A stretch of DNA of 32,000 bases from Haloquadratum walsbyi C23 (GTDB lineage: Archaea; Halobacteriota; Halobacteria; Halobacteriales; Haloferacaceae): positions 1,710,001-1,742,000 of the forward strand of contig NC_017459.1 in assembly GCF_000237865.1 (NCBI RefSeq), read 5' to 3'. Every line of letters begins with the position of its first letter. Within the stretch, counting starts at the first letter, position 1. Under the pieces are notes generated by a model. It worked only from the letters and a program-made list of their open reading frames with translations, had not been told where the DNA came from and ran no database searches. Positions 171-21,935 of this stretch are shown here, one piece after another. Position numbers and translations under genes: made by a program.

Positions 171-1229
171 ATGGCAACAGACGTACGATTGCAGTATTAC
201 GGTGCGCAGTACGGTCAGATTATCAGCGTGTTACTTGTTGTGTCTGCAATCGCTGCGTTTGCTGCCGCAGGGTTTGTTTACACTAACCCACCAATCGAAC
301 AGACAAGCCCAGAGGAGACAAATGTGCAGTCATTCTCATTTGATACGGACCATCGTGCAACAATAACCGGTCAAAGTCAGCTTTTTGACCGTGGGCGGAC
401 GCTCCAGAACTATCCTGTCTATTTTCGGAATTCCTCACCCGATGTTACCTTCGCTACAACAATTTCTGTCCCACAAGATCGGTCAGTCGATGTCTCCTAT
501 CGAGTCATTGCAAATTATGAAGCAACGTTTCGTGGTGAAGTGTTCTGGGACCAACAGGAAGTCGTTGCAACTAATAAATGGACAGTGCAAGATGGGCAAG
601 TTCAACATAATACAACATTAACAATTTCAGAATATCTATCACGAATTGACCCATTTGAATCAGCAGTTGGGAGTACGGGAACACTATCACGAGATCTACA
701 GTTCGTTGTAACATACAGTTCACCGGTTGATGGGGGGAACAGATATGAGGGACAGTTGCGCTCGACGACGACAATTCAATCATCATCCGATGCATATTGG
801 GTAAGTTCTGAGATTGGAGATAGCACAACAAAAAGCCAGACACAGTCATCAGAGCAGTATGTCGGACAGCCAAATATGCAGCAAGTGCGATTGTTAGCCG
901 GGAGTGGTGGTATATTATTAATCGCTGGGGCAAGTGTATTCGTCTGGACGCGTCGACAGGATGACCCAGCTGAATTGGAACTTGCCGTTGTTCGCGACCG
1001 CTATGACGAGTGGATCTCAGAGGGTGAACTCCCAACCGGTGCAGCGAGTGAGTACGTATATATAAACTCACTTGAGGGGATTGTCGACATTGCAATCGAC
1101 ACCAACAAACGCGTCATTTATGACGCTGATCTTGAGACCTACAGCGTTGTTGATGAGAATATTATTTACTACTATGCGCGTGACCCGACCGCTGTCTCAT
1201 CGTGGCTGAATCTTTCTGTTGATGAATAA
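171..1229 (+). CDS. Two-pass membrane protein, DUF5305-like: N-terminal TM, ~200-aa T/S/Q-rich ectodomain, second TM, ~90-aa acidic cytoplasmic tail
   Basis: ATG-started 352-codon ORF. Hydrophobic segments are IISVLLVVSAIAAFAAAGFVY and LLAGSGGILLIAGASVFVW, the latter followed by TRRQDD. The tail motif RYDEWISEGELP...LEGIVDIAIDTNKRVIYD matches my memory of the DUF5305 family found beside SipW-type signal peptidases. The gene is convergent with, and 6 nt from, the peptidase gene. Family name is from memory, not searched. Confidence 0.7.
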   Translation: MATDVRLQYYGAQYGQIISVLLVVSAIAAFAAAGFVYTNPPIEQTSPEETNVQSFSFDTDHRATITGQSQLFDRGRTLQNYPVYFRNSSPDVTFATTISVPQDRSVDVSYRVIANYEATFRGEVFWDQQEVVATNKWTVQDGQVQHNTTLTISEYLSRIDPFESAVGSTGTLSRDLQFVVTYSSPVDGGNRYEGQLRSTTTIQSSSDAYWVSSEIGDSTTKSQTQSSEQYVGQPNMQQVRLLAGSGGILLIAGASVFVWTRRQDDPAELELAVVRDRYDEWISEGELPTGAASEYVYINSLEGIVDIAIDTNKRVIYDADLETYSVVDENIIYYYARDPTAVSSWLNLSVDE

Positions 1230-1235
1230 TATCGC

Positions 1236-2390
1236 TTATTCAAGCCATTGACGGATTTTAACCAATAATGGCACATCGCGTTGTCGGCGACCAATTCGAA
1301 TCGGGTCAAGTCCAACCAATGTCGTTGAAATAATAAATGATGCAGCACCGACAGCAGTGTTGATCGCAATGAGTGGTGCCCATGGATGAATACGATATAA
1401 TCCACTAATCATTTCACGCGGGAGAAAGGCAAGATATCGATGTTCAACAATTGCATCGACATACACACCGGTTGAGGGTGGCGCAGAAATCGTCACATTT
1501 GTTTCCGCTGTTGTCTGTGCGGGAACAACCAACTCTGTATCAGAGACAGCAACATTATCACTTGCTGGTTCAATCATCACAATAACCGGGATCCATCCAT
1601 TACTTGGGACTTGATAGCTCACTGTTTCATTTGACCCCTGTCCAATAACGGAAATCCCAGCAGAATCACTCTCCGAACTCACATACTGAAATTGATGGAC
1701 ACCACCGGGGAGGATCATACTCATAGTGAGGGTGGCTGTCAGAAGCAATATCAAGATAGTGATAATGAGTGTTGGATTGATTTTTCCTGCGGAGCGTGAG
1801 GTGTCTCGGCGGCGGGTTGATCGGGTATTTTCTGCATATGCTGACAGTGCGTATGCAATCCCACCAAAGCCAATAAGGATATATGACAGTCCTTGCCCAC
1901 CAAGGATTGCTCGTGTTCCAAGTAATACTGCTAATTCTTCCTGTGCTGTTGTTGTGAGTGATCCCATTGTGGTGACTGCAGTTCCAAGATTAGGAATCAC
2001 AACAACAAAATCACCAATCGCGAGTGCTTTTGCAACAACCTGTGACTCACTGACTGGTGGTTCAGACCCATCCTGATCGGTGACAACATTCGCATCACCA
2101 CGGGTGATATATCCATCTGATGTTGTCCCAACGACTCGATGTGTGACTAACCCACCACCGTTGAGATTAACAGCGTCAAAGGTAACAATATCACCCTCCT
2201 CAATTGGTCCAGCTAATGCTGTTGGAATCGCAATAAACCCATCACCAGCGCTAATGGTCGGAGCCATACTCCCCGTTTCAACATATGCCGGACCAACTGG
2301 CTGTCCGAGAAGTGCCCCGGCGAGCATTGAAATAACAAATAATAGTGCTAGCGCGCCGCCAACCCGTTTGAGTACCTGTACTAGCACCAT
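1236..2390 (-). CDS. Signal peptidase I, archaeal/ER (Sec11/SipW) type S26B, with a long multi-TM C-terminal extension
   Basis: ATG start. N-terminal anchor is ALALLFVISMLAGALLG. Catalytic motifs are the Ser box VETGSMAPTISAGD, the His box LVTHRVVG (Ser/His type, not the bacterial Ser/Lys type) and the Asp box ITRGDANVVTDQDG. About 200 extra residues carry three further hydrophobic segments (LSYILIGFGGIAYALSAYA, LIITILILLLTATLTMSMIL, LIAINTAVGAASFIISTTLVGL). Confidence 0.85.
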   Translation of the reverse strand: MVLVQVLKRVGGALALLFVISMLAGALLGQPVGPAYVETGSMAPTISAGDGFIAIPTALAGPIEEGDIVTFDAVNLNGGGLVTHRVVGTTSDGYITRGDANVVTDQDGSEPPVSESQVVAKALAIGDFVVVIPNLGTAVTTMGSLTTTAQEELAVLLGTRAILGGQGLSYILIGFGGIAYALSAYAENTRSTRRRDTSRSAGKINPTLIITILILLLTATLTMSMILPGGVHQFQYVSSESDSAGISVIGQGSNETVSYQVPSNGWIPVIVMIEPASDNVAVSDTELVVPAQTTAETNVTISAPPSTGVYVDAIVEHRYLAFLPREMISGLYRIHPWAPLIAINTAVGAASFIISTTLVGLDPIRIGRRQRDVPLLVKIRQWLE

Positions 2391-3252
2391 GGCTCTGATA
2401 CATAATTATACTATCTCAATCATTTAGTGTCTTTCAATCATACAAAAATCAAAAATCAAAAATCAAATTAATTGAATATGCTGGAGGAACCATGCTCAGA
2501 TACTGTCGATAGCAGCGTCAATCGCTTATGAACGTATTATCCACCTGGTTCAACGTCATACGTTCATTATTTTGCAATGACGCACTCCTGTTTGATGCGT
2601 TACTCAGGGAGTGATAGCAAGCGTTTTGTGTCTGATGTTAACTGATGACGCTGGTGATGCAGTAATCCGAGCGTCAATTCCACCGGTGATTACTCCGATC
2701 AACTCGTGTCTTCTCGTATGATCTATACTGATAGAAGAAGTCGAATACAACGACCCCCATCGCTAGATCGGTCAACTTCGGTATTGTATCTAGTGATAAA
2801 AATGCCTTAGATAACTGCGAGTGCTGCGGTTGAGAAAATAATTGGACATTGTCCCGTAAAAAGCAACTGACGACAAAGACGTGTTCACTTCTCATGAAGA
2901 GGAAAATAGCGTTTATGTAAACTGTATACCGTATAAGAAAATACTACAGGGTATTTTTCGGATTATCCGATTATCATATTTCCCCACATTTTCCTCCAAA
3001 GTCATTTAATTCTGATTTTGACTCATCAAAAGGTCATAGTTTTGAATAAGTTTCCGGGAGAAGCCCTGAAAAAGAAAAATATATTCTCTCTATACAATAA
3101 CTGGTCACGATCTTATCATTTCGGTAATACGAAACTATGACTATATCCTCATAGGTTATATAGACAATGTAGCTGATTGGTCCCTTATTTGTCGTCAGAC
3201 TCGCGTATTTGAGGTGTGTCTGCGGAACTGATATGACTTCGAATATCTAAAT

Positions 3253-3744
3253 ATGATAATATCACGCTTCATGTGGCGAGGAATTATTTTTGCAATTGTA
3301 ATTGCACTTGGGGGAGCGGTTCTACTTGGATGGGCACCCTCTCCAACATCAACAGGAGCCGCATCACTCACGACCGATCAGGGAAACACCGATTTTGACG
3401 TAATGGTAACGACACAAGGGCGGTGTGGTCCAACATGTCTCAACGTCGCGACAGTAGTAACAAACCAACAGACAACACAAGCAACAAATATAGAAATCAC
3501 AGCTCAAGTGTTCCCTGGATACGTGGAATCAGCAAACAGCGCCACAACAACAGTAGTCTATCGAACAGAAGAACAAGTTGGGACACTTGCCCCAGGGGAG
3601 CGAAAAAGTATTGACCGGTCCGTTCGGTGGGGTAGTGCAGAGGCTCTGTCGGTCAAAGACCAGGGTGGACGCGTGACTATTCTCATTGAGATCCAATCCA
3701 CAGATACAGAAGTGACCTTCCGCGAGCATTATGATCTTATATAA
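3253..3744 (+). CDS. Small N-terminally anchored or exported protein, unknown function
   Basis: ATG start. N-terminal hydrophobic segment is GIIFAIVIALGGAVLLGW, followed by a T/Q-rich beta-type sequence (NIEITAQVF, RVTILIEIQSTDTEVTF). No family recognised. Coding call rests on length, composition and its position in the surface island. Confidence 0.55.
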   Translation: MIISRFMWRGIIFAIVIALGGAVLLGWAPSPTSTGAASLTTDQGNTDFDVMVTTQGRCGPTCLNVATVVTNQQTTQATNIEITAQVFPGYVESANSATTTVVYRTEEQVGTLAPGERKSIDRSVRWGSAEALSVKDQGGRVTILIEIQSTDTEVTFREHYDLI

Positions 3745-4147
3745 CAAATACGAAACGTGAGTGGTAACGAATCTTATCATAAGCACACGTTCACCCATCG
3801 TGCATCAGAATAATCACGAACTGAATGTGTCTGACCCTTTCGACGTGACAAGAGTGTTATCTGTTTATATTTTATATTTCACTTTCGCACTAGCACTACC
3901 ACTACCACTGCCACTTCTACTGAGATACCCAGTTACACATTAGCGATCTTTTCGCCTATAGGTGCACAAGATATCATAAATAAGTGATACAACGACGCAA
4001 TATTTCGTCGTCATGCGATTATCTAATATATTAATGATAAGTCATAATTGTATTAATCCTTCTTTTGAATCATCAATACGCATTAGCTCTAAGATTATAT
4101 CAATAATTAGCAGTAAATAACAACGGATATACCTTCACAAAACCAAT

Positions 4148-5483
4148 ATGATATATCGCATCTTATACACGCCGAGGAGCTCTTGCCCTGTTCATCACAG
4201 GAGGTGTCTGGTGGATAACTGAGACAGACGCATTTAGCTCTGCGAAGACAAGCCGATCAGCCACTGTCGGCGCCGGCTCCGATGATGTTGCACTCCTCGG
4301 AATCGGGGGTATTGATTCACGAACGGCGTTTAATGAACCACACGCAATTACACTTACAAATCAGACTCAAACCCCAGTTGAGGTGACTATTGAGAGCCGG
4401 AATGGTCGATTCAATTTCAACACATCTCAAATTAATTTATCATCTGGGGAGAACAGAGAGATTTCTGCTTCCACCGCCAGCACTGAGACCGGCGAAGTTT
4501 CAGACTTTCTCCGATTCGTTGCGACGTCACTTGAGTACGGAACGAATATTGAGGCAACTCGACGACTCACGCTGAAGTCCGAGTCTGCTGGAGCTGACAG
4601 AGGGCTCCTCATCTATGCGGTCAAGACTTCACAGTCGAATGGCGATATCAGAGTGTACAATCCAGCCACCGATACAGTCAGTAACCCGCCACAGAGTCGC
4701 CCTGCATCTGCTCTTGGAGACACAGCAGATATCGTCGGCGACAGTGCGGTCGACATTCCGTACCTCACTAAGCAAGGCAAAAATCGAGTGTATGCTACAA
4801 CTGTAGGGGAGAGTTCGGACACACAAATCCCGAAGCAAAACAGTGCTAAACCAAAAATTGACCCGAATAAGCCAACACGGATCGCAGTTGGTGAGTGGCA
4901 ACCAGCAGATCTGTCGGGGAAACTTATTCTTGCCGAGAGTAATCAAGGAAACATCGCGGGCATTGATGCGGACGGAAACGCTGAGGTGATCGCCAGACCC
5001 GGAAACGGCTGTAGTGCTGTCATGGGTGTTGCTGACGTTGACGACGATGGGAGCGATGAGATAATCTTCTTTGATGGGTCCCAAGAAATCCGGTATCTCA
5101 ATCAGGATGATAGTACAGAAAAAGTCCCAACCGGAGGCGTAGGAAGCAACAACGGGAGTGGAATCGGTCCGCCTGCAGATTTTGACGGTGATGGCGTTCC
5201 ACGAGTTCCATTCATCGACGGGAGTCAAAATCCGACTCTTATTACGAGTGATGGGGTAAAAACACGACTGAATAAGAATGGTGTTGCAAAAAAAGCCGGC
5301 GTCGCACCCGTTGATATCGACGCTGACGGCGATCTCGAATTGTTATTCTTTGGCAATGATGAGGGGAAGGTACAATATGTCGATGATGTTCTGGGGTCCA
5401 ACACGATTGAAACACTCAAAGTAGAGGGAAGCACGATCTCGCCTGAGGAAAAAATTGGCTTAGGATTCGGCAGACAGCCATAG
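4148..5483 (+). CDS. Secreted FG-GAP/VCBS-like beta-propeller protein with a TasA-like leader module; start region disrupted (possible pseudogene); paralog of 10890..12770
   Basis: The ORF track starts at GTG 4383, but the frame stays open back to a TGA at 4149-4151. The 77 upstream codons (YIASYTRRGALALFITGGVWWITETDAFSSAKTSRSATVGAGSDDVALLGIGG...NEPHAITLTNQTQTPVEV) align with the N-terminus of the 10890 paralog. The only nearby ATG (4148) is one nucleotide out of frame. The C-terminal two thirds carries repeated Asp-rich loop plus beta-strand motifs: DVDDDGSDEIIFFDG, DFDGDGVPRVPFIDG, VDIDADGDLELLFFG. Confidence 0.6.
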
Positions 5484-5879
5484 ATCGCTCCTGTGGGACC
5501 GTCTGTCGATACGTTATTCTTTCACTTCACGTATTGAGTTTCGCTCTTAATTGAACGTCTAGCACATTTGAACACACGTTCCTCACCCTCTTTGCATTGT
5601 AATAAACACTAGTTGAGGATGGCATATATGTCTACTCTGCCCAAATACTGAATCCTTGCAGACCGGGGTAGATTCTTTATACGACAGTGCAATATACAAG
5701 ATCCTTGCATTCAGTGATTATTTTTGTACTGTCCAAGCACAGGGAAGGCTGAGAGAAAATATCACAAACAGCAGAGAACTCACAAGAGAGATTACATACG
5801 TATCTAATTAAAGTTGGGTCACAGGGGACACGATAATCACTAACAGATTGATTGAGTTGATGATTTGGTAAGTACGAGT

Positions 5880-8189
5880 TCACACATCGAGGGTAAATTC
5901 TCTCGTGTGTTCCGTCGCGGTTTTCTCTTTTTCATTCACAGTCTTCACCGCAATCGTGTATGACTCTGTGTCATTAATTGAGAGAGTTGGTGGGACATAC
6001 AGTGTCGCCGGGGTCAGCTCATATCGATATGACCCGATTTCTGTTGTTCCTGTCCCGTCGGGCGTGATCTCTTTCGTGAGGAGCTCGTCTCCGTCATCGT
6101 CCACAATTGAGAGTCTGATGGCGATGATTGGGCGATTGTCATCCTCGACCACGAGTGAGTCGACACCGAGACATCGATTATCATGCTCATAGAACGGGGT
6201 CCCGAGTTCGACAATTCGTGGGTTGCGACGAATGCGGGTCATGATCGTCGCCCATGGAAAGACGCGATACCCAGCAACGGACCCCAGAATTCCAATCAGT
6301 GACAGGATCCCTGGCATAAGCACCTGCTGTGGGACGACTCGTTGATTGATCAGCGTCTCTTCGGGTGGAATCACAATCGTCTCAACTGTTGATGCCTCGC
6401 CACCATACTCATCTTCGACACGTACTTGGACTGTATATTGTGTCTCTTGGGTTGGATACGTGACCGTCTGTCCGGTCTTAATCGTCCCATCAGGGAATTC
6501 CCATCGCACGGAGACATCGCCGATTTCATTTGAGATATTCGCAGTCAGTGTTGTCTCATTTCCATCGGTTTCAACTTGAGTTTGCGTCTGCGTTTGCGTT
6601 TGTGTCTTGGTCACGTTATCGATGGCTGGAATATCATTCACCACAATCGTTTGAGTTGTTGTATCTGACTGTCCAAGGCTGTTCGTCAGTTTCAATTTAG
6701 CCTCATAGATCCCTGGTTCATTGAATTCTGTTTGAATATTCCTGCCAGTTTTTGTTGATCCATCCGGAAGTGTCCAGGTGTATCGAACATCAGGATCAGC
6801 GAAGATTGCAAATGGGGAGAACCCAGGTGTTCCCGCTTCAAGAACAACAGAGTCCTCTCGAACAGTCACATCAGTGTCCAATACCTGCCATCCGTCATCA
6901 GTCAACCGCCCGACAACAGCCTCATCAGGGTCAACCTCTCCCAGCGTCGATCGGTCTGTATTCAATTCGATCGTTGTCTCGGTATCTCCTTCTGACGATG
7001 GCACATCAATATCGACTGCTGCTGATACCTGTTGTGAGGGAGACACTGCATCAGTTGATCCAACTGTTGACTGACCTCCATCCAGTTCAACCTCCTCATC
7101 TGTTGTTGTGACGATTGCGTTCGAGTCAATGTCGAGATCAGATGTTTCAGACTCTATCCCGCTACTCGAATCCGAATCTGCTGTGCTTGTGGCTGTCTCT
7201 CCGCTTTGATCACTTTCACTCGCAGCTGTTGTCTCAGTCTCAGTCTCAGTCCCAGAGCCTTCAGTCTCCTCCTCGGCAGGTGAGTTGATAACAGCAGTCG
7301 GTCGGGACTCTCCTTCCGGAAGTGACTCCGTCGAAATAGGGTCAACATCAACAATACTCTGTCCCTGCTGTTGCTGTGACTGTGATTGTGATTGCTCTTG
7401 TCCCTCTGCTTGTCCTTGTTGCTCTATGGTTGTATCCTGTGTTTGCTGCTCTTGAGCAGACTCAATATCGACTGCTATCTCTGGCTGTTCAACCTCAGGG
7501 GCAGTTGCTGTTTGTTGTGGTTGCTCTTGTGGGGCAGTCGCCGTTCCCTCCGGTTGTTGCTGTTGTTCAGTTTCGGGGACAGAATCGGGAGTTTGTTCTG
7601 CGGGTTCATCCGAATCATCATCATCATCATCATTCTCACCTAATCCTGTGTCCGTGTCCGTGTCCGTTTCAGGCACCTGTGTTCTGATCGTGATCGTCGT
7701 GGTAAGTGTGTCTCCAACATCCACATCAAGTGTATTAATCTCAATTCCCAGCGTTTCAGACTCTCCAGGCGCGAGTGTCAGGTTTCTGCCAGTCGCTCCA
7801 ACGCCGCTGTCGGGCTCACGAAATGTGAGGTTCTGCCCAACTGTGAGTCGGGAATCTTGCTGTTCAACGGTGACGGTGACAGGTCCATCGGTGGTATTGT
7901 CTGTGTGGGTAATGACGAGTAACTCTTCGAATTCGGTAATGGCATCCGCATTGACACCTGGATTGGCAATCTCAATCGAGACGTTTGTGACGTTTGTGTT
8001 CTCGCCTGCGGTCTCTGTCTTCGTGATGTGCTGCTCGGCTCCAGAAGCCGGTTTGACTGTGATCTCCGGAGCCTCTTCGGGGAAGAGTTCATCCTCAACG
8101 ACACCTGGCGTGCCGACAATCGCCCCTGGAATCACAACGAATGCTGCACATACGACTACGAGTATCGGGCTTACCGAATTAATTTTCAT
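5880..8189 (-). CDS. Large surface protein: signal/anchor, N-terminal beta-sandwich module, acidic low-complexity spacer, PGF-pre-PGF-type motif, two PKD-like domains, TM helix, ~130-aa cytoplasmic domain
   Basis: ATG start 11 nt downstream of the stop of the 8201..8818 gene. Leader is MKINSVSPILVVVCAAFVVIPGAIVG. The N-terminal module reads VSIEIANPG...LVITHTDNTTDGPVTVTV. Low-complexity runs include TDTDTD, D8, SQSQSQQQQ and TETETE. The PGF-pre-PGF-type motif is DGWQVLDTDVTVREDSVVLEAGTPGFSPFAIFA. PKD-like repeats are VRYTWTLPDGSTKTG...YEAKLKLTNSLGQSDTTTQTIVV and VRWEFPDGTIKTG...YTVQVRVEDEYGGEASTVETIVI. The TM is LMPGILSLIGILGSVAGY, followed by RIRRNPR. Confidence 0.8.
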   Translation of the reverse strand: MKINSVSPILVVVCAAFVVIPGAIVGTPGVVEDELFPEEAPEITVKPASGAEQHITKTETAGENTNVTNVSIEIANPGVNADAITEFEELLVITHTDNTTDGPVTVTVEQQDSRLTVGQNLTFREPDSGVGATGRNLTLAPGESETLGIEINTLDVDVGDTLTTTITIRTQVPETDTDTDTGLGENDDDDDDSDEPAEQTPDSVPETEQQQQPEGTATAPQEQPQQTATAPEVEQPEIAVDIESAQEQQTQDTTIEQQGQAEGQEQSQSQSQQQQGQSIVDVDPISTESLPEGESRPTAVINSPAEEETEGSGTETETETTAASESDQSGETATSTADSDSSSGIESETSDLDIDSNAIVTTTDEEVELDGGQSTVGSTDAVSPSQQVSAAVDIDVPSSEGDTETTIELNTDRSTLGEVDPDEAVVGRLTDDGWQVLDTDVTVREDSVVLEAGTPGFSPFAIFADPDVRYTWTLPDGSTKTGRNIQTEFNEPGIYEAKLKLTNSLGQSDTTTQTIVVNDIPAIDNVTKTQTQTQTQTQVETDGNETTLTANISNEIGDVSVRWEFPDGTIKTGQTVTYPTQETQYTVQVRVEDEYGGEASTVETIVIPPEETLINQRVVPQQVLMPGILSLIGILGSVAGYRVFPWATIMTRIRRNPRIVELGTPFYEHDNRCLGVDSLVVEDDNRPIIAIRLSIVDDDGDELLTKEITPDGTGTTEIGSYRYELTPATLYVPPTLSINDTESYTIAVKTVNEKEKTATEHTREFTLDV

Positions 8190-8200
8190 AATTTCCCCTG

Positions 8201-8818
8201 TTATCCTGTCTGTCTGATATGAACGTGTGCAGTCGCAGTGATTGTCGAACTCGTTGCTTCAGTTCCGGCTCCGGTTCCAGAAATAGATGCAGATGCAGAA
8301 TCGTCAGCAACGACTCCGACAACACGCTCTTCACCCGGCTCAAGCGTCACAGTGACATCAGTGCCGCTTAATCGCTCACCAGTCTCAGCATCACGATATT
8401 GTAGATCTGTGGATCCAGCGTTTGCATCCGTCTCTGTCTTCGTGTCGACATTTGTATCCTCGTGTGTGATCCAGACGGTCACCGTCTGTGTGTCAGTGTT
8501 CGTGATCGTGAACACTGGCTGGGATGGATTCGGTTGTGTCGGGATCGCTTGTGGTGGCGTAATATCAACACGTGTGATTGCCCCATCACGCAATGTGTTC
8601 TGGGCAGTGAGTGCCCCAGGGGCATCCCCAGCAGGTTCGATCATCACTGCCTGTGGATTCCCCCCTGTATTGGGGGCGGGTGTTGATGCTGCTGATGCTG
8701 ATGCTGTTCCACTAAGGCTAGGACTGGAAGCGTCTAACGCCGAGACCAACCCGCTTGAGGCGATGATCGCGGCGATGACGACTGCGAGTGCGAGCGTCTT
8801 GACTAATCGGGGTGTCAT
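8201..8818 (-). CDS. Small secreted protein, divergent paralog of the TasA-like proteins
   Basis: ATG start. Sec-type leader is MTPRLVKTLALAVVIAAIIASSGLVSA, followed by an A/S/T/P linker. The core motif VFTITNTDTQTVTVWITHED matches IFNITNNGEEDVDVWINTEG and IFNITNNGESTVTVWIATQG of the two larger paralogs. It is co-directional between the 8952 gene and the 5880 gene. Confidence 0.7.
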   Translation of the reverse strand: MTPRLVKTLALAVVIAAIIASSGLVSALDASSPSLSGTASASAASTPAPNTGGNPQAVMIEPAGDAPGALTAQNTLRDGAITRVDITPPQAIPTQPNPSQPVFTITNTDTQTVTVWITHEDTNVDTKTETDANAGSTDLQYRDAETGERLSGTDVTVTLEPGEERVVGVVADDSASASISGTGAGTEATSSTITATAHVHIRQTG

Positions 8819-8951
8819 TGGTCGAACTATTGAAATATCGACGAATATCGGCTGAGAAACTATTCGCTAGGTCCCCTAGAGAAATATATTCGACTGTTCG
8901 TCAGTAGGGGGAAAGGAGTTCAGTTATGTATCAGATCTGATACTCTGTTGG

Positions 8952-9698
8952 TTATGATCCTGGTCCTGTGGTTGTTCCCCCATCTATTGCGTTGTCACCT
9001 TCCTCATCATTCACTGCTGAGATGGTGATATCCTCGAGGATTGGCTCATCAGTGTTGTCGAGATTGAGTGTACCGCTGCTCACAGCTTCAGGCTCGATTT
9101 CGATTGCCATACTGACTGTCACTGTCTCACCAGATTCAATATTAACCGCTATAGCGTTGTTATCCGGTTGTTCCGAGAGACTACTTGAGTCCTCAGAGAT
9201 AACGACATCGTCGGAATCAATCATCGCGTTGAATTCGTTGATTCTGTTGTCTATACTCACTGAAGAATCACTACTTGTCTCGTTGATCTGAGAGCCAAGC
9301 TGATTATCATCAATATAGAATGTCGTATTGACGCTGCTATTACCGTCTTGTGCACCGCCTTCTGTGTTAATCCAGACGTCGACATCCTCTTCGCCGTTGT
9401 TTGTAATATTGAATATGCCCTCAGCAGTTGTCGTTGCGTTCGCATTCACTCCATTATTGCCATCATTTCCATCTAGGACGATCTCGAAGGTCGAATCATC
9501 AGTGTCATCTTGATTAATGAATGAACTATTCTCCGGATCTTCAGTCGGCTGGATTGCGAGGAGTGCATTCGCGTCGCCAGCAACGTCGACATCAGCTGTA
9601 CGCTCTGCTTCAACAGTTGTGAACGCGCCCGTGGCCGCGAGGGTGCCCACGGCACCAAAGACCAGCACAAGCGCGAGGAGTTTTCCTTTTGGAATCAT
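8952..9698 (-). CDS. Secreted TasA/camelysin-like protein (possibly DUF1102 family), candidate major fibre subunit, paralog 1
   Basis: I prefer ATG 9698 over the upstream GTG 9752 because it gives a canonical leader, MIPKGKLLALVLVFGAVGTLAATGAFTTVEAERTADVDVAGD. This parallels the paralog at 13830 and the SipW-dependent TasA leader as I recall it (...LVGGGTWAAFNDIKSKDATFASGTLDL). The core motif FNITNNGEEDVDVW resembles TasA FQFENNGSLAIKEV. The protein is N/T/S/D-rich with many N-x-S/T sequons. Confidence 0.85.
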   Translation of the reverse strand: MIPKGKLLALVLVFGAVGTLAATGAFTTVEAERTADVDVAGDANALLAIQPTEDPENSSFINQDDTDDSTFEIVLDGNDGNNGVNANATTTAEGIFNITNNGEEDVDVWINTEGGAQDGNSSVNTTFYIDDNQLGSQINETSSDSSVSIDNRINEFNAMIDSDDVVISEDSSSLSEQPDNNAIAVNIESGETVTVSMAIEIEPEAVSSGTLNLDNTDEPILEDITISAVNDEEGDNAIDGGTTTGPGS

Positions 9699-9805
9699 AG
9701 TTTGAATTTCTGTGATTATGATGTGAGTTCCCCCGATCAGAGGGGTTCTCACTTACATGTACACAAACACCCTTCCCCCTTTGTTATCCCCCTCTACTAA
9801 ATCAG

Positions 9806-9965
9806 TAGGAGATAATAACGTCACCCCGGGACTCACATAGGTGACGCTAAATTGCCCCGGCAATTCGAATAGGAGATGCTAAACTCACCCTGAAAATATG
9901 ATAGGCGACGCTAAATAATCGCAAAAATCGAGTTAGTCTTGTGTAAAATCACCGTTAGACCCGCC
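9806..9965. repeat. Phased tandem array with exact 32-bp spacing: four clear units and one degenerate unit, consensus TAGGnGAYGCTAAA
   Basis: Units start at 9806 (taggagataataac), 9838 (taggtgacgctaaa), 9870 (taggagatgctaaa), 9902 (taggcgacgctaaa) and 9934 (tagtcttgtgtaaa). The array lies 108-267 bp upstream of the 9698 start, in the 1.19-kb divergent intergenic region. Confidence 0.7.
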
Positions 9966-10889
9966 TAATATGGCGAATATAGTGAATCCAGGATGATTTG
10001 TGCACACCACTCAGTGATATGCATACAATCTCAATTCGATGAAATACTTGGAACCCCCACTCTCGATCGGGGATGGTTCCTCCGACATCGATTGTCTCGG
10101 ATATGTGACCTCGCGCGAGTCTTTCATTAGTGATCCCTCGATATTCGGAATCGCGAGCGCAATCGTTGATCGAATGGACTGTCTATTCAATTCTCATCGG
10201 TCAGGATTCACCTGTGAATCTAATTTAGTCAGATATTCCCACCACGGTGATCAGTCTGAGAGTTTCGAGCAGCCAGATGGGCCGCGGTCGGATCATCTAT
10301 CGGTCTCAATAGCTCCCTGACATGAGGAGAATAATGGGTTTCTTGATGCTATGATTGAGAGCAGAACGATTGTCATCAGATTCTCATGTGTTTCTTACTG
10401 ATGATACGTAGCGATATAGCTATATGATGATATAGCACTCTGTCGACCAACTGGTCAACGGTGATGATCAGAAGCATTGTCCTGTATATTCAACCGGGTG
10501 CAAGATAGATTGTTGATATCGACATTGCTGAACGGGTCATTCTCGCTGCGACTGTTTCGGGCGAGAGCGAGTCAATGCCGGTGTCAGGTGATTATATAAA
10601 ACATATTCGACGTATGCATCGTTTTGTCTGTGATTTACGCTAGAAACTGGGTATGGCTTGTGTGCGCAATCACGTAGACAACGATGACAAACAACGTCGG
10701 ATCGAAAAGATGAATCACACGCTGTTACTCGTCTCATCTCCATTCATGAATATAGATATAAACATACGATAGATTTCATGATATACTGACGCTCTACGGA
10801 ATTGTGAATTGTGGGGAGAGATATGTACCCTGAAAGCAACGTAATTGATTTATTCACTCGTATTGAACATGTAAGCAACAAATCAAATA

Positions 10890-12770
<1,881 letters not shown>

Positions 12771-13125
12771 TTCTTTTAATTTTCTACATTATTAACAATC
12801 ACAGCGAATAGATAGGAATTAGCTTTCGCTGACTCAGTCTTCATTATTCGTCAATTCAGTGACGACGCTTACGCACACCTCTGTGACAACCATGAGGTCA
12901 TTAAATAAGTAGACATTACGCAATAAGAGCGCGCGACTGCGAGAGTCACATTAATTTAATTATAATATCATAAAAGGGATTACTCTGAGTATTTTCTGTA
13001 CTACTGGAAGCAATAGAGCTATCTATACGTGCGTACCTAAGCCAGAGAATTTCTCCTGGATTATCGAGGATTAGAATAAGGGTACACGTTCATTCCCACC
13101 TCATATGCAGATAACTCAAACGTCT

Positions 13126-13830
13126 TCAGTCGACTTCGAGTCCAGCTTCTGATTGATCAGGGTCTGCAATAGCAAGTATCGTAATCCGATTGAGGACCGC
13201 TTGATTGGAGTCAGGATCAATCCCATCGATTTCGACGGCAATACTAATATGAACACTCTGACCTGGAGTAATACTAATCCCAATTCCCTCTGTTCCTGGA
13301 GTGTCACCAGTGATTTCCGGCTCCGAGATGACGTAGTCCTGACCCGGATCGATGAATGCGTCAAAGGTAGTAATTCGTCTATCGATACTGACACCGCGAT
13401 CTTCAATTTCAGTCACATTCGCATTTTGAGAACTGCCGATATCGTCAATGTAGAATGTCGTATTAACATTATCTGACTCATTTTGTAAGCCGCCTTGTGT
13501 TGCTATCCACACTGTTACTGTTGATTCCCCGTTATTTGTAATATTGAAGATATTCGCTGCGGTTGTTGTTGCGTTTGTATTTAATTGTGCATTGTTTCTT
13601 CCACTCACATCAATCGCAAAAGTGCTATCGGCAGTGTCAGACTGCTGAATAAACGCACTTTCATCTGGGTCAACTGCCGGTTGAATTCCTAACAGTGCAT
13701 TAGCGTCCCCGGCGACGTCCACATCTGCGGTTCGCTCAGCCTCAACTGTACTGAATGCCCCTGTTGCGGTCACTCCAATTGCTCCACCAAAGAGCAGCAA
13801 AACAGCCACTACTCTAAGGAGTGATATCAT
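13126..13830 (-). CDS. Secreted TasA/camelysin-like protein (possibly DUF1102 family), paralog 2
   Basis: ATG start. Leader plus first strand is MISLLRVVAVLLLFGGAIGVTATGAFSTVEAERTADVDVAGDANALLGIQP, nearly identical at protein level to paralog 1. Shared core motifs are NATTTA, IFNITNNGESTVTVW and VNTTFYIDD. Confidence 0.85.
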   Translation of the reverse strand: MISLLRVVAVLLLFGGAIGVTATGAFSTVEAERTADVDVAGDANALLGIQPAVDPDESAFIQQSDTADSTFAIDVSGRNNAQLNTNATTTAANIFNITNNGESTVTVWIATQGGLQNESDNVNTTFYIDDIGSSQNANVTEIEDRGVSIDRRITTFDAFIDPGQDYVISEPEITGDTPGTEGIGISITPGQSVHISIAVEIDGIDPDSNQAVLNRITILAIADPDQSEAGLEVD

Positions 13831-13945
13831 AATGGGTTCTCATTATTATAAGAACTCTGGGTATATCATCTTATTGACTCAACGTTATGAGGAGTATGTT
13901 CACAGAAGAAGTCAAGATAATACTTATGATACCCTGCATGTGACC

Positions 13946-14003
13946 CATTGAGATTCATTCCCGCGCTGAAGCGCGAGGCTTTCTCCTCGATTCTCCGTAA
14001 GTA
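13946..14003 (-). repeat. GC-rich hairpin element in AT-rich spacer, possibly a remnant of an IS1341-type tnpB 3' end / right end; loosely related copies near 13037-13098 and 28283-28347
   Basis: The hairpin is CGCGC-TGAA-GCGCG at 13962-13975, flanked by ttcattccc and gaggctttctcctcgattctccgtaag. Related strings are gagaatttctcctggattatcgagg...cgttcattccc at 13046-13096 and attctcct...gagcgaggttttc at 28295-28323. The shared 10-mer ctatctatac precedes both of the other two copies. Similarity is weak and was judged by eye. Confidence 0.3.
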
Positions 14004-14065
14004 ACAACTCAAAATTCGTTGGTTTGATATTGATTGGATTGTCAGTATATGTACGAATAACCCTG

Positions 14066-14638: not shown

Positions 14639-14766
14639 GTATTTTGTTCAATTAAATAATCATCACCGTCTCCGATTAATCACAGATCATTTTATCTGCG
14701 GATAATCAGTCGATTTTACTCAGATATCAAGTAAGCTATTATCGCTGGTTCACTCTGAGAACCGGG

Positions 14767-16071
14767 TCACGTCTCAATGACGGTGTCAAATATTGGTCGA
14801 AGTGTATTGATTGTGCGGTCTCCATCTGACGGTGTCATTAGATAGGTTGTCTCAATATCTGCAGATTGGAGACGTCGACTGAGTGTATATAAAAACTGGA
14901 ATACTTTCTGTGGGCTAAGATACTGCAGGAACGCCTGAAGCGTATGAACGCTGCAGACTGTATTTTGATCTGGGTTCTGCCAGTTATCAAGTACCTGTGT
15001 AATGAGAATACCAAGTCGGGACAGATCAGTTTGATCGGATATCTGGTGTGTTTCAATTGATTCATCCATCCCATCACCAGATAGTTCTGCAACTGACATG
15101 TCTCCAGGAACACTTGCTCCGACTTTGATAATGATAATCTCACCACCGTCCCAACTCGGATGTTCCTGACACGCACGGAGTATATCGATCGTCTCACCTG
15201 CTGGAACAAGTAATAATAGATTCTGTGGGTACTGTGTTTCTAGTATATGATTAAATCCAGCATTCCATGTTTGTGAGTTATCCTCTCCAAGCAGAAGCGC
15301 TTGTGACCCATCAGAGACGGTGCTACTATCACTCTGAATACTCTCAGCAGAGGTACTGTCCGTCAGTGATGACGATTGCTGTGACTGTGACTGTGACTGT
15401 GACTGTGACTGCGGGGCAACCGGAGAGTCAGTCTGACCAGTATTCACGGACGTATTCTCGTTCTGGTTACTATCAGTGATGATTTCTTCAGGGATGTCTG
15501 TTTGACCGATATTCACAGAGCTATTTTTATTTTGATTACTAGATGTGCTTGCCTCATTTGATGAATCTGAACCAGAGGGCTGGTTCCATATACGCTCCGA
15601 GTCACGCTGAGATCTGTCAGCCGCAGGCTCAGTTGAGTGTTGATTTGAACCCGTAGATACGGCAGAATCAGACATATCATCAGAATTTTTCAGACGATCA
15701 TCGCTTGATAGTCCAGTTTTGATACTGTCAGAGTCAGTATCAGTTGCATCCGTAATTGCCGCATCGGACCAGACGCGAGTAGAGCGGGAGTCATTCGTTA
15801 TGTGCTCTTCTGGATCTGGCGTGGTTGTATCGGTATCAGTATCAGTATCGCTAGCGAAATCTGAACTTGAGTCTGCGTCCGCAGTTGTCTCATCGTCTGA
15901 GAGGGCATCATCATCATCGTTATTAATATTGTTATCTGCTGATTCGTCTGTATCTATATCATCAGGAGATTCAAACTTAGCAAACCGGGATCGGACAGTG
16001 GTACTCGTCTCTGCTTCATCATCCATGTCATCTTCCTCGGTCATGAGAAGAGAACAAATACCGAGTGACAT
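14767..16071 (-). CDS. Highly acidic protein with a disordered D/S/T-rich N-terminal ~270 aa and a C-terminal degenerate KaiC/RecA-like domain with no Walker A
   Basis: ATG at 16071, with an alternative ATG at 16044. Dipeptide repeats TDTDTDTDT and SQSQSQSQSQ are present. The C-terminal part (NLLLLVPAGETIDILRAC...VCSVHTLQAFLQYLSPQKVFQFLYTLSRRLQSADIETTYLMTP...LRPIFDTVIE) resembles the haloarchaeal inactive KaiC-like family. No GxxxxGK[ST] is present. Confidence 0.65.
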   Translation of the reverse strand: MSLGICSLLMTEEDDMDDEAETSTTVRSRFAKFESPDDIDTDESADNNINNDDDDALSDDETTADADSSSDFASDTDTDTDTTTPDPEEHITNDSRSTRVWSDAAITDATDTDSDSIKTGLSSDDRLKNSDDMSDSAVSTGSNQHSTEPAADRSQRDSERIWNQPSGSDSSNEASTSSNQNKNSSVNIGQTDIPEEIITDSNQNENTSVNTGQTDSPVAPQSQSQSQSQSQQSSSLTDSTSAESIQSDSSTVSDGSQALLLGEDNSQTWNAGFNHILETQYPQNLLLLVPAGETIDILRACQEHPSWDGGEIIIIKVGASVPGDMSVAELSGDGMDESIETHQISDQTDLSRLGILITQVLDNWQNPDQNTVCSVHTLQAFLQYLSPQKVFQFLYTLSRRLQSADIETTYLMTPSDGDRTINTLRPIFDTVIET

Positions 16072-16112
16072 ACCGTTTGTACACTATGCAATTGATATCC
16101 AATAATCATCAA

Positions 16113-17219
16113 TTAGCTCAGTCCGTTTTCATCCGTCTCTTCATCTAGAAATGGACTAAAATCTTCTGACTCATCAGCTGATAGATTCCGTGGGGCACCG
16201 GTAAGGACATCTGAAGTGAGTGGATTCCATCCGCTCGGGTCAATATCATTGAACGGAGTCTCACAAAATGGACATGCTGGTGAGGCTAACATTGAGATAT
16301 TTATATCCTCATCACAGTAGTCACATTTTGCATGTTCTATCCCTTCTTGGAGAGCTGTTTGTCTGATTGCTTCTAAGGTTTCTTTATCCTCACTTATAGA
16401 GCTAATCATGTCAGTGTTATCCTCAATTTGATTTGTTAGCTGACTCCGGCGTGTCTCAAACTCCTCTTGTCGATTGAGTGCTGTTTCAAACGCACTTTCA
16501 ATTGAGTCAAACTCATCATCAACCCGTGATTGGATTGTTTCTTGGGATCTCTCAAGCTCTTCAATCCTCGATTTGAATTCCTGTCGTAATTCAAGAGATT
16601 CTTCATATGACTGGTTGAGTTGCTCAATTTCTTCTTTCAGTAATTCGATTTCAGATTGTACATTAGCCATTTTCGCATCATTCTCAGATGAATTGCGTGA
16701 GCCCCGATTTTCATTCTCCATTATATTCACTTCTTGTTCGATACTCTTGACACGGTCTTGAAGTCGGACCCAACGCTCAGTCTGGCTTCGGCGGTTCTGG
16801 TCAATCTTATCTGATAAGTCGTACAATCGCTGCCACAACTCCTTTTCAGACCGTTCATCTGACATTTTCCTGAGTCCATCATTATAGTCCGGACCGCTTT
16901 CAGAGACGCCACTCTCTTCAGATTTAGACGTTGATACAGATTCCCGCTTTCCTACCGGTAACGGCTGTTCTTTTTGATCAATCGTATCATTACCGCCGGT
17001 GGATGCACCAGTTTCCTGGTCATGATTTGACTGGTTGGCAGTTGTTGTGTCTGTAACAGAGTTCAGCGTGCGTTGTAATTCAGTATATACCCAATATGCA
17101 GAAACAGTCTGATCCAATATTTCATTTGTTGATACTCCCTCGGACTCAGCCATCTCCTCAGCCCACTCTAAGAATTCATCTGTATCAAACTCAATATCTT
17201 TATCTGATGTATTATTCAT
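16113..17219 (-). CDS. Acidic coiled-coil protein with a C-terminal zinc ribbon
   Basis: ATG start. There is a long heptad-like E/Q/R/L-rich stretch (residues ~120-290, e.g. EIELLKEEIEQLNQSYEESLELRQEFKSRIEELERSQETIQ). The C-terminal CxxC...CxxC motif is CDYCDEDINISMLASPACPFCETPF. No family name recognised. Confidence 0.7.
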   Translation of the reverse strand: MNNTSDKDIEFDTDEFLEWAEEMAESEGVSTNEILDQTVSAYWVYTELQRTLNSVTDTTTANQSNHDQETGASTGGNDTIDQKEQPLPVGKRESVSTSKSEESGVSESGPDYNDGLRKMSDERSEKELWQRLYDLSDKIDQNRRSQTERWVRLQDRVKSIEQEVNIMENENRGSRNSSENDAKMANVQSEIELLKEEIEQLNQSYEESLELRQEFKSRIEELERSQETIQSRVDDEFDSIESAFETALNRQEEFETRRSQLTNQIEDNTDMISSISEDKETLEAIRQTALQEGIEHAKCDYCDEDINISMLASPACPFCETPFNDIDPSGWNPLTSDVLTGAPRNLSADESEDFSPFLDEETDENGLS

Positions 17220-20346: not shown

Positions 20347-20453
20347 TGCGACAACGTCCACGCTGATCATCAGTGGGTGCTGTGTCGCGATGATTTACGC
20401 AGAGCATGAACTATATGAAGTACCCCGCGCACGGTAGTGCAATGCGTCCGTGT

Positions 20454-21738: not shown

Positions 21739-21935
21739 TGTATTTTGTTATGGTTCGCTATCTCTCAGAAGCTCGTGTTTTGACGCGCTTCACCCCGCCC
21801 ACGGTGAGTCGGGGCACTTGCGCTATTCTTTTCTGATAGATGGTTTTGATAGATATTGTTCAAGAATCATCAGCATATATACATACAAAACGGATACCGA
21901 CACCGGTATTTCCTTGCGGTCGAATTGAGACATGT

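Follow-up and report, generated by a model that had tools for sequence, protein, structure and literature searches.

Tafi filaments were described in Haloarcula hispanica (preprint 2023; then Galeva et al., iScience 2025, PMC11821415), and the Natrinema filament has been solved by cryo-EM (Sonani et al., PNAS 2025, PMC12337348). In Har. hispanica, mature TafA begins at Phe30 as determined by mass spectrometry, TafD has the residues Ser40/His83/Arg84, and TafF has three predicted C-terminal transmembrane helices (TMs) (PMC11821415). The canonical cluster on Hfx. mediterranei pHM500 has the gene order tafD-C-B-A-E-F-G. A comparable principle operates in the AbpA filament of Pyrobaculum calidifontis (7UEG) and in the Bacillus subtilis TasA-SipW system, where the subunit is a beta-sandwich whose N-terminal donor strand is released by a signal peptidase with its gene close by; AbpA loci are without the tafD and tafG pair (PMC11821415). 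The DUF1102 clusters of Thermococcales and Archaeoglobales combine Sec-type pilin leaders with DUF5305 and a two-domain peptidase resembling TafD (PMC11821415). According to a 2026 preprint, Tafi belongs to the TasA superfamily and DUF5305 is an accessory of the signal peptidase (10.64898/2026.01.04.697558).

We analyzed 32,000 nucleotides of Haloquadratum walsbyi C23 (NC_017459.1, 1,710,001-1,742,000, forward strand), hereafter the window, whose positions serve as coordinates throughout. Judged by its sequence, the stretch from 171 to 17219 is a taf (Tafi) pilus cluster specifying a putative thin filament of the cell surface, assembled by strand donation (Table 1). The original prediction held that no halophile locus of this type had been characterized, a claim of novelty that fails in view of the published Tafi loci of Haloarcula (2023/2025) and Natrinema (2025). 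What sets the H. walsbyi copy of this known system apart is the export signals, the tip protein and the anchor.

Gene content and the peptidase pair

The locus contains the same seven roles as the Har. hispanica tafA-tafG and pHM500 clusters, and its counterparts of tafB, tafD, tafE and tafG, along with the tafC leader, match the pHM500 cluster directly. A TafA-type major pilin is present in the Har. hispanica-type cluster and absent from the H. walsbyi locus, which, like that of Natrinema, has only TafE-like pilins and no TafA ortholog. Between Natrinema and H. walsbyi, TafB, TafD and TafG are conserved and the tip and anchor are variable.

Table 1. Features of the H. walsbyi locus (window positions). 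NCBIfam scores for TafE, TafC and TafF lie far under the equivalog cut-offs.
Feature	Position	Strand	Evidence
tafG-like: DUF5305 two-pass membrane protein, proposed signal-peptidase accessory	171..1229	+	Pfam DUF5305, E 1.7e-37
tafD-like: dedicated Ser/His signal peptidase, 384 aa, extra TM helices	1236..2390	-	TIGR02228, E 1.2e-13; Peptidase_S26, E 1e-5
Small membrane or secreted protein, membership in system uncertain	3253..3744	+	N-terminal hydrophobic span
tafC-like paralog 1: Tat leader, donor strand, Taf N-domain, FG-GAP beta-propeller	4152..5483	+	NCBIfam TafC, E 4.3e-7
tafF-like: putative PKD-stalk anchor, 769 aa	5880..8189	-	PKD, E 4e-18
Small Taf-core paralog, 205 aa, N-terminal hydrophobic helix	8201..8818	-	hhalign to TafE family
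tafE-like pilin 1: Sec-type leader, predicted cleavage between A25 and F26, donor strand FTTVEAERTADVDVAGD	8952..9698	-	NCBIfam TafE, E 4e-14
tafC-like paralog 2: Tat leader MGKYTRRAALG, predicted tip adhesin	10890..12770	+	NCBIfam TafC, E 5.7e-8
Microsatellite in tafC-like 2: (AACAATAAT)3.6 then (AACGAC)18	11739..11874	+	TRF, 99-100% matches
tafE-like pilin 2: Sec-type leader, predicted cleavage between A25 and F26	13126..13830	-	NCBIfam TafE, E 3.3e-13
tafB-like: DUF7344 winged-helix regulator, two C-terminal TM helices	14066..14638	+	Pfam DUF7344, E 3.5e-30
DUF7504 protein, acidic low-complexity N-terminal half	14767..16071	-	Pfam DUF7504, E 1.3e-19
Coiled-coil protein, possible zinc ribbon	16113..17219	-	NCBIfam coiled-coil matches; weak Zn_ribbon match

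The tafG-like protein has hydrophobic spans at residues 12-39 and 239-260 and aligns with Hfx. mediterranei TafG (24.8% identity over 363 aa; BLAST E 6e-14). Its gene converges on tafD-like with 6 bp between them, an arrangement repeated in five other loci, whereas the two genes occupy opposite cluster ends in pHM500. The tafD-like protein matches Hfx. mediterranei TafD over its full length (34.5% identity; BLAST E 2e-66) and shares with Har. hispanica-type TafD four TM helices, two outside domains and matching Ser/His/Arg positions. Among 31 aligned sequences, S41, H84, R85, D99, N101 and D105 are invariant, the catalytic Ser, His and Asp included; the protein has a second extracellular domain, its C-terminal domain is conserved, and its more than 500 homologs are about 385 aa long among the matches listed. 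These results confirm the original prediction of a Ser/His peptidase with a multi-TM extension, which belongs to the S26/archaeal signal peptidase I group, and of a convergent DUF5305-like two-pass protein.

The tafB-like ORF opens at TTG 14024, with ATG 14066 the likely start. Its product (TM spans at 144-162 and 166-185) is 39% identical to Hfx. mediterranei TafB over 175 aa (BLAST E 1e-42), and the gene adjoins tafE-like genes in 9 of the 14 surveyed loci. The DUF7504 gene adjoins tafB-like in eight loci; the coiled-coil gene, co-conserved with both, is syntenic in seven, and the NCBIfam matches of its product are exclusively of the coiled-coil type (Rad50/SMC arms, E 3e-8). All ORFs listed earlier, up to 13830, exist in the window, but the end of the cluster had to be moved, since these two co-conserved genes continue to about 17219. 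The protein at 3253..3744 has no match in Pfam or NCBIfam, is unrelated to the TafE family (hhalign probability 2.9%), and is limited to close Haloquadratum relatives (95-99% identity, position unchanged). A degraded TnpB element lies close to the locus.

The proposed gene-linkage check shows the peptidase, DUF5305 and subunit families to be co-conserved across relatives. The set of tafG-tafD, tafB-like, tafE-like and the PKD protein recurs, completely or partially, in five or more other genera, with occurrences in Natronomonas, Halobaculum, Halobellus, Halopenitus and uncultured Halobacteriales, as well as in Haloquadratum-type metagenome contigs.

Pilins, tip proteins and candidate anchors

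The two pilins are paralogs (51% identical) with near-identical TGAF[TS]TVEAERTADVDVAGDANALL modules, as had been predicted of two small secreted proteins sharing a leader and first strand. Their family profile matches the cryo-EM Natrinema pilin 9P0A end to end (E 5e-21), and each also matches individually (phmmer E 3.7e-11 for pilin 1 and 2.4e-6 for pilin 2). The family is common to Natrinema sp. J7-2 and H. walsbyi, with a donor strand of the form TGAF..VEA[DE]RT..V.VAGD and a core motif ..INNG..V.., at about 22% identity in structural alignment; identity to Hfx. mediterranei TafE is 27-28%. Residues A25, F26, V29, R33, A35, G41 and D42 are invariant among 62 aligned sequences. Cleavage before the conserved Phe, as in the Har. 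hispanica-type system, is predicted in H. walsbyi, and the 9p0a chain, with 188 of 215 precursor residues, would begin at F28, directly after TGA, if only its N terminus is missing. The pilin leader is of the Sec type (MIPKGKLL.., without RR), in contrast to the Tat signal (RRNVL) of the Natrinema pilin. The DUF1102 clusters likewise have Sec-dependent pilins, a two-domain TafD-like peptidase and DUF5305; the H. walsbyi pilins differ in belonging to a highly acidic, haloarchaeal branch, and their locus has kept tip proteins of the Tat type. Some of the homologs of these pilins carry the annotation DUF1102/PF06510, and the pilins themselves have no match to PF06510. Pilin 1 is 100% identical to a Haloquadratum walsbyi protein. 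In its AlphaFold2 (AF2) monomer model (pLDDT 77.8), the donor segment, residues 26-41, is unstructured (pLDDT <50).

The leader and donor-strand module is common to the pilins and both propeller proteins (hhalign probability 97.5%, E 7.8e-12). The original prediction of one leader module throughout thus holds for the shared module and not for the route of export, because the propeller proteins have twin-arginine leaders and the pilins Sec leaders. Leader identity to Hfx. mediterranei TafC is 34-38% (38%, E 2e-9, for paralog 2), and the TafC N-terminal module is likewise shared with the Har. hispanica-type system, in which the extra domain is a LamG lectin rather than a propeller. The NCBIfam TafC match covers residues 5-142 of paralog 1, which also matches FG-GAP_3 (E 7e-6), and residues 2-170 of paralog 2, whose R6 and R7 show conservation of 90% or more among 21 homologs. 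Paralog 2 comprises a predicted cleavage site between G26 and F27, the donor strand, an Ig-like N-domain, an (N/ND)n linker and a beta-propeller. Its C-terminal part is modeled as a propeller (AF2 pLDDT 74.1), in agreement with the original call of two propeller proteins, and Foldseek returns propellers (9bfq, E 9.5e-6; the lectin 6rfz, TMt 0.43) together with pilin and chaperone Ig folds. The microsatellite encodes the poly-N/(ND)n linker (pLDDT <50), and homologs vary in length (579, 609 and 626 aa). For paralog 1, the start earlier placed at 4383 gives way to an opening at 4152 that includes the Tat leader: the frame-0 ORF reads YIASYTRRGALALF..DAFSSAKTSRSATV, there is no in-frame ATG, GTG or TTG upstream of 4383, and the ATGA configuration is seen again in four metagenome contigs.

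The tafF-like protein combines a Sec signal and a Taf-core-like N-domain that has no donor strand with an acidic, Q-rich linker, a PGF-pre-PGF-like domain, two PKD domains, one TM (618-641) and a C-terminal domain of about 130 aa, matching the PKD-domain membrane protein originally described. Its NCBIfam matches to TafF (E 4e-4) and PGF_pre_PGF (E 4e-6) are both under the cut-off, and residues 70-172 align with the TafE family (hhalign probability 87%, E 3.9e-6). It has no BLAST match to Hfx. mediterranei TafF; the TafF of that system is 369 aa with a TGAF motif and, in Har. hispanica, three predicted C-terminal TMs, in contrast to the PKD protein with a single TM and cytoplasmic domain here. 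Orthologs adjoin tafE-like genes in at least 10 loci. The small paralog, first seen as a third, cryptic family member, is a distant relative of the pilin core (hhalign probability 91%, E 9.5e-7, FTITNTDTQTVTVWITHEDT included), and has no donor-strand motif or module. It is kept upstream of the PKD gene in J07HQW1, J07HQW2 and the environmental locus L015 (65-87% identity), and its architecture resembles that of Natrinema TafF1 and TafF2, described in PMC12337348 as a jelly-roll-like domain joined to a single TM helix.

Probable and alternative readings of the locus

The probable product of the locus is a surface pilus of the Tafi type, TafE-like and put together extracellularly through donor-strand complementation. 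Against a pilus stand the absence from the pilins of the twin-arginine signal after which Tafi is named, the NCBIfam TafE, TafC and TafF scores far under the equivalog cut-offs, the PKD protein's lack of BLAST similarity to canonical TafF and its link to the Taf core at an hhalign probability of 87%, and the one tip gene without a canonical start. A short, nonpolymeric complex, in which a propeller adhesin, one or two TafE-like adapters and the PKD/acidic membrane stalk use the same strand donation without open-ended polymerization, is unlikely, even though the PKD protein alone would give a stalk of more than 600 residues, tip genes equal pilin genes in number, and Sonani et al. predict some haloarchaeal Sec-type TafE homologs to form nonfilamentous assemblies (PMC12337348). 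Both TafE-like proteins have the donor strand and a full core aligning with a proven polymerizing pilin, the residues that never vary belong to the donor strand, and the largest Sec-type clade is predicted in the same source to form filaments. That the locus is a decaying, nonfunctional remnant is very improbable: an in-frame canonical start is missing from tafC-like 1, its Tat motif is changed from RR to RP in one environmental allele, and a degraded TnpB element lies in the vicinity, yet every other ORF is intact, several metagenome contigs keep synteny, and all tested genes are under purifying selection against an environmental relative (dN/dS 0.06-0.27), tafC-like 1 included (0.079 against L015, 443 codons).

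True orthology to bacterial tapA-sipW-tasA, with TasA/camelysin subunits and a SipW peptidase, is extremely improbable and, at the family level, largely refuted; the TasA/SipW-type assignment of the original prediction is not supported as family membership. The peptidase does match the SipW model (E 1.7e-6), but at 27.7 bits against a cut-off of 190 and below the archaeal model; mature TasA likewise starts directly after its signal peptide (AFND following ..WA), but the original line-up of motifs has no statistical support (hhalign against TasA, probability 0.5%). No Peptidase_M73 or other TasA-family Pfam match occurs at E<=10, a PDB sequence search with the family profile retrieves no chain of TasA, camelysin or AbpA, and the locus, unlike that of B. 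subtilis, has no TapA-like gene. The superfamily assignment in the 2026 preprint and the modeled fold favor a relationship: in the proposed Foldseek check, the pilin 1 model matches only AbpA (7ueg, probability 0.99, the best E-value, 2.7e-4) and TafE (9p0a, probability 1.00) at E<=0.001. TasA is absent from the best 50 matches, sequence similarity to AbpA and TasA is undetectable, and PMC12337348 gives TafE a 3+5 strand topology unlike theirs and distinct from the jelly roll. As far as the model indicates, kinship with TasA is visible at the fold level only.

Proposed assembly and distinctive features

As a Tafi-type pilus, the system would export its pilins unfolded through Sec and its propeller tips folded through Tat. 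TafD and its DUF5305 partner TafG would cut every precursor directly before the conserved Phe (after TGA in ..TGAF..), freeing the strand F-T-T-V-E-A-E-R-T-A-D-V-D-V to enter the open groove of the next subunit. The order would run from propeller tip through a polymer of TafE-like pilins, possibly long, to an acceptor-only Taf-core domain, a role suggested for the PKD-stalk N-domain and/or the small paralog because both align with the TafE core without a donor strand; this last step would end the fiber and tether it to the membrane. TafB, a membrane-tethered HTH protein, may regulate the genes, perhaps with the DUF7504 and coiled-coil proteins. The original functional reading, of a dedicated peptidase with a DUF5305 partner, small secreted subunits with an N-terminal strand directly after the cleavage site, and large adhesins or anchors, fits the published Tafi model (PMC11821415; PMC12337348), and the filament may act in adhesion or aggregation. 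Compared with Natrinema Tafi, the H. walsbyi tip is a Tat-leader beta-propeller and the candidate anchor a 769-aa PKD-stalk protein; pilin and anchor alleles are strongly divergent between co-occurring strains. What is distinctive in this organism is the presence of Sec-type pilin leaders beside Tat-type propeller tips, a putative PKD anchor, and divergent alleles of pilin and anchor.

Pilins and their relation to Tafi and TasA

The locus belongs to a kind of system already known, here in a new host and with a distinct parts list. All of the open reading frames (ORFs) listed in the original prediction, which had proposed a TasA/SipW-type fibre island at 171-13830, are present in the window, and NCBIfam yields specific but sub-threshold matches to the models TafE, TafC, TafF, and TafA among the window proteins. 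The tafA-tafG cluster and the "Tat-fimbriae" (tafi) that go with it come from Haloarcula hispanica (Galeva et al., iScience 2025, preprint 2023, PMC11821415), and the Tafi pilus of Natrinema sp. J7-2, made of TafE, has a cryo-EM structure, PDB 9P0A (Sonani et al., PNAS 2025, PMC12337348). In these papers, TafC is the tip, TafE and TafA are pilins, TafF is the anchor, TafB is a membrane-bound regulator, TafG is a DUF5305 protein, and TafD is a signal peptidase with four transmembrane (TM) spans and two domains (PMC11821415, PMC12337348). The taf genes of Har. hispanica have been expressed in Haloferax volcanii. As this kind of system is already published, the locus is not the discovery of a new class; a literature search on Haloquadratum and tafi returned no paper. 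Filament formation and function of the locus are predicted by homology.

Features of the tafi-like locus and of the ORFs that follow it, in window coordinates
Feature	Coordinates	Strand	Description
DUF5305 protein, tafG-like	171-1229	+	Pfam E 1.7e-37; two hydrophobic spans
Signal peptidase, tafD-like	1236-2390	-	TIGR02228 E 1.2e-13; Peptidase_S26 E 1e-5; extra membrane spans
orf163	3253-3744		
Propeller protein, tafC-like 1	4152-5483		
PKD protein, tafF-like	5880-8189	-	Two PKD domains; C-terminal TM
Small paralog	8201-8818		205 aa
Pilin 1, tafE-like	8952-9698	-	
Propeller protein, tafC-like 2	10890-12770		
Pilin 2, tafE-like	13126-13830	-	
tafB-like	14066-14638		DUF7344; two TM helices
DUF7504 protein	14767-16071	-	Co-conserved with tafB-like
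Coiled-coil protein	16113-17219	-	Possible zinc ribbon; co-conserved with tafB-like
Sensor kinase	17789-19945		HisKA_7TM-PAS-HATPase
Fragmented ORFs	~20450-21740	-	Cas12f1-like/TnpB TNB zinc-finger domain in one of them (20661-20933, E 7.7e-15)

The two pilins are 51% identical and have in common a near-identical segment, TGAF[TS]TVEAERTADVDVAGDANALL. Pilin 1 has 100% identity to a protein of Haloquadratum walsbyi. Each matches the TafE structure 9p0a as a single sequence (E 3.7e-11 for pilin 1 and 2.4e-6 for pilin 2), and a profile built from 62 members of the pilin family aligns with it over the whole length (E 5e-21). The NCBIfam TafE match (E 4e-14) is under the equivalog cut-off, and blastp against the TafE of Haloferax mediterranei pHM500 gives 27-28% identity for pilins 1 and 2 (E 5e-5 and 2e-4). 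Residues 26-41 are unstructured in the monomer of the AF2 model of pilin 1 (pLDDT 77.8). A Foldseek comparison of this model with the PDB, a check put forward with the original prediction, gave only two matches at E<=0.001, the Pyrobaculum bundling pilin AbpA (7ueg, E 2.7e-4) and 9p0a (E 5.9e-4, TMt 0.53), with the Sulfolobus thread 7pnb ranked next (E 1.3e-2). PF06510 (DUF1102) has no match to either window pilin at E<=10 and is carried by more distant homologs. As a candidate fourth paralog, orf163 was ruled out (hhalign probability 2.9%).

The relation of the pilins to TasA is at the superfamily level only. A motif line-up with TasA had been put forward in the original prediction, but hhalign between the pilin family and TasA, the sequence of which was verified against 8aur, returned a probability of 0.5%, and the alignment is therefore rejected as sequence evidence. 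The window pilins have no Pfam match to TasA/camelysin (Peptidase_M73) at E<=10, the pilin profile search of the PDB found no TasA, and TasA is absent from the top 50 Foldseek matches of the pilin 1 model. The tafD-like product scores 27.7 bits with the SipW model, against a cut-off of 190; no TapA-like ORF was found in the locus, where the partner of the peptidase is DUF5305. A fold match to TLP-1a was not counted as one to a "TasA-like protein"; TLP-1a, which comes from the CryoSeek work, is a fibril of pond water. Likeness at the superfamily level, which spans TasA, AbpA, threads, cannulae, and Tafi, is seen in the matches of the pilin 1 model to AbpA, 9p0a, and the thread. In a preprint, Tafi has been placed in the TasA superfamily, and DUF5305 has been read as a signal-peptidase accessory subunit (10.64898/2026.01.04.697558).

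Proposed processing pair, candidate anchors, and extent of the locus

The tafG-like and tafD-like genes are convergent and lie 6 bp apart, and this pair is adjacent and convergent in the window and in five other loci. The cluster on pHM500, with the order tafD-C(LamG)-B-A-E-F-G, served as the canonical comparison: identity is 34.5% over the full length for the tafD-like product (E 2e-66), 25% for the tafG-like product (E 6e-14), and 39% for the tafB-like product (E 1e-42). In TafD-like proteins, S41, H84, R85, D99, N101, and D105 (full-protein numbering) are invariant in 31 sequences, and the counterparts of the first three in Har. hispanica TafD are Ser40, His83, and Arg84. The tafD-like sequence has no match in the PDB.

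Two proteins are candidate anchors. The PKD protein matches NCBIfam TafF (E 4e-4), its position as a neighbor of tafE is conserved, and its N-domain (amino acids 70-172) aligns to the TafE core with no donor strand (hhalign probability 87%); BLAST against the pHM500 TafF gave no match. An alignment to the TafE core, one that takes in FTITNTDTQTVTVWITHEDT, is likewise obtained for the small paralog, which has no donor-strand motif (hhalign probability 91%); having one N-terminal helix, it resembles Natrinema TafF1/F2. BLASTP between the PKD protein and the small paralog is not significant, and they are linked solely via the family profile.

The DUF7504 and coiled-coil proteins accompany the tafB-like protein in at least seven loci, across several genera, and the locus is therefore extended to ~17219. 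Pfam and NCBIfam offer no informative family for either beyond generic coiled-coil matches, and neither gene is among the members in the passages that define the Tafi cluster as tafA-tafG (PMC11821415, PMC12337348). These two proteins may constitute a regulatory or signalling module. Immediately beyond the cluster comes the sensor kinase; in a Natronomonas locus (L008), the PKD gene is followed by an ORF with an N-terminus that by eye is response-regulator-like, maybe by coincidence. The fragmented ORFs further downstream appear to be a degraded IS200/IS605-type tnpB, and G+C content in that stretch is slightly higher (0.50-0.51). The window as a whole, at about 0.44-0.52 G+C, is AT-rich for a haloarchaeon, and an Rfam scan of it found no RNA family.

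A survey of a genome collection with a narrow peptide pattern found 14 loci, and owing to that narrow pattern and small number it is biased toward the Sec-type clade. Within it, tafG-tafD, tafB-like, one to two tafE-like genes, and the PKD protein co-occur in Natronomonas aquatica, Halobaculum saliterrae, Halobellus captivus, and uncultured Halobacteriales, and the Halopenitus loci carry subsets of the gene set. Synteny is preserved in metagenome contigs of Haloquadratum relatives, and dN/dS ranges from 0.06 to 0.27 for all genes compared with an environmental relative. Haloquadratum-type genomes have several separate tafE-like/PKD loci, as in J07HQW2 (L002, L009, L013) and J07HQW1 (L001). Neither tafD nor tafG lies within 10 kb of the J07HQW1 locus, and several pilin loci may therefore share a single peptidase pair.

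Tip proteins, export signals, and cleavage

The large propeller proteins and the pilins share only the leader and donor strand (35 columns, hhalign probability 97.5%). NCBIfam TafC matches the first ~145-170 residues of tafC-like 2 (E 5.7e-8) and tafC-like 1 (E 4.3e-7), and the matches to pHM500 TafC are confined to the leader region (E 2e-9 and 5e-6). An AF2 model of tafC-like 2 (pLDDT 74) consists of an Ig-like N-domain and a propeller, and its Foldseek matches include Sevenless, the lectin PLL2, and pilin/chaperone folds. The C-terminal domain of the tip is a propeller in the window whereas it is LamG in Haloferax TafC, and tip proteins in related loci of other genera have beta-helix-type domains (Bactofilin, DUF4097). 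Since this domain differs by lineage, it is a swappable module; variation in the TafC C-terminal domain is already described in the published comparisons. Within tafC-like 2, a microsatellite at 11739-11874, composed of (AACAATAAT)3.6 followed by a perfect hexanucleotide repeat, (AACGAC)18, encodes a poly-N/(ND)n linker. The lengths of tafC-like 2 homologs differ, and the linker may therefore vary by slippage.

Tat tips and Sec pilins occur together in this one locus. The propeller protein leaders contain YTRRAALG or YTRRGALA, with the RR at least 90% conserved in the family and found in most representative clusters having the leader-plus-N-domain-plus-propeller architecture; tip-like proteins in related loci of other genera are Sec-type, like the pilins. 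A Tat (twin-arginine) signal was sought on the window pilins and is absent, RR in the window being found only on the tip proteins: the pilin leaders, MIPKGKLLAL.. and MISLLRVVAV.., contain no RR, and leaders without RR (M-x-PKGKLLAL-type) are likewise found in all 14 related genome loci. Sonani et al. (PMC12337348) report Sec signals in 71 haloarchaeal homologs of TafE, and thus the family as now drawn there includes Sec-type pilins.

The mature N-terminus of Har. hispanica TafA is given as Phe30 in the published account (PMC11821415). The 9p0a chain, with 188 of 215 residues, corresponds to a cut after ..TGA and a start at Phe28, assuming that only the N-terminus is missing from the model. 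The window pilins would be cut between A25 and F26, and the intact tip protein between G26 and F27, as judged by alignment. Canonical TafF (pHM500 locus L026, 13593-14702) has ..ATGAF.. where its signal peptide ends and no VEA.R donor strand; this motif suggests that TafD cuts TafF too. Unlike canonical TafF, the window PKD anchor is without the ..ATGAF.. motif.

The tafC-like 1 ORF, which has a Tat leader, begins just behind a TGA, with which an ATG in another frame overlaps (ccaatATGAtatatc), and its start region (4140-4400) contains no in-frame ATG, GTG, or TTG before 4383. A non-canonical start (ATC 4155), a +1 slip, and a recent, shared loss of the start are each possible. The same ATGA arrangement is present in 4 of 4 environmental contigs (L015, L017, L024, L025), one allele of which has RR changed to RP, and the dN/dS of the gene is 0.079 over 443 codons, despite the absent canonical start. 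Orthologs elsewhere have normal starts (MGTFTRR.., MSYTRRGA..); no start-codon variant of the gene came out of a search of metagenomes, in which the 19-mer matches were unrelated chance matches.

Allele divergence and significance

Between this strain and the environmental relatives on contigs L015 and L024, TafG, TafD, orf163, and tafC-like 1 are 97-99.7% identical. Far more divergent in the same comparison are the PKD anchor (68-76%), pilin 1 (65-69%), and tafC-like 2 (80-92%). The dS of the PKD anchor and pilin 1 is 0.97-1.27, versus 0.14-0.26 for the other genes compared. The anchor and pilin genes appear to have been replaced by divergent alleles and not simply to have evolved fast.

The locus may be an undescribed mixed-pathway assembly line, a reading that is plausible though short of probable. 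Folded, lectin-like beta-propeller tips would be exported via Tat and the pilins carrying them via Sec, one TafD/TafG peptidase would trim both at a common ..GAF.. site, between A and F, and the tip domains (propeller, beta-helix, LamG) would be interchangeable from one lineage to another. The genes for pilin and anchor, whose products are surface-exposed, would be deeply divergent alleles among co-occurring Haloquadratum strains, a pattern that would fit a filament diversifying under pressure from viruses or predators, in an organism for which no pili are known.

Haloquadratum walsbyi is the dominant square archaeon of salt-saturated brines, and Tafi-type pili are here extended to it by homology. 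The locus further suggests that there is a widespread uncharacterised subtype, in which Sec-type pilins and a PKD-stalk anchor go with a conserved trio of tafB, DUF7504, and coiled-coil genes. The split between Tat tip and Sec pilin in one locus is a test case supplied by nature for the question of why the pilins of haloarchaea changed their export route, and the allelic divergence of pilin and anchor may bear on surface variation in Haloquadratum populations.
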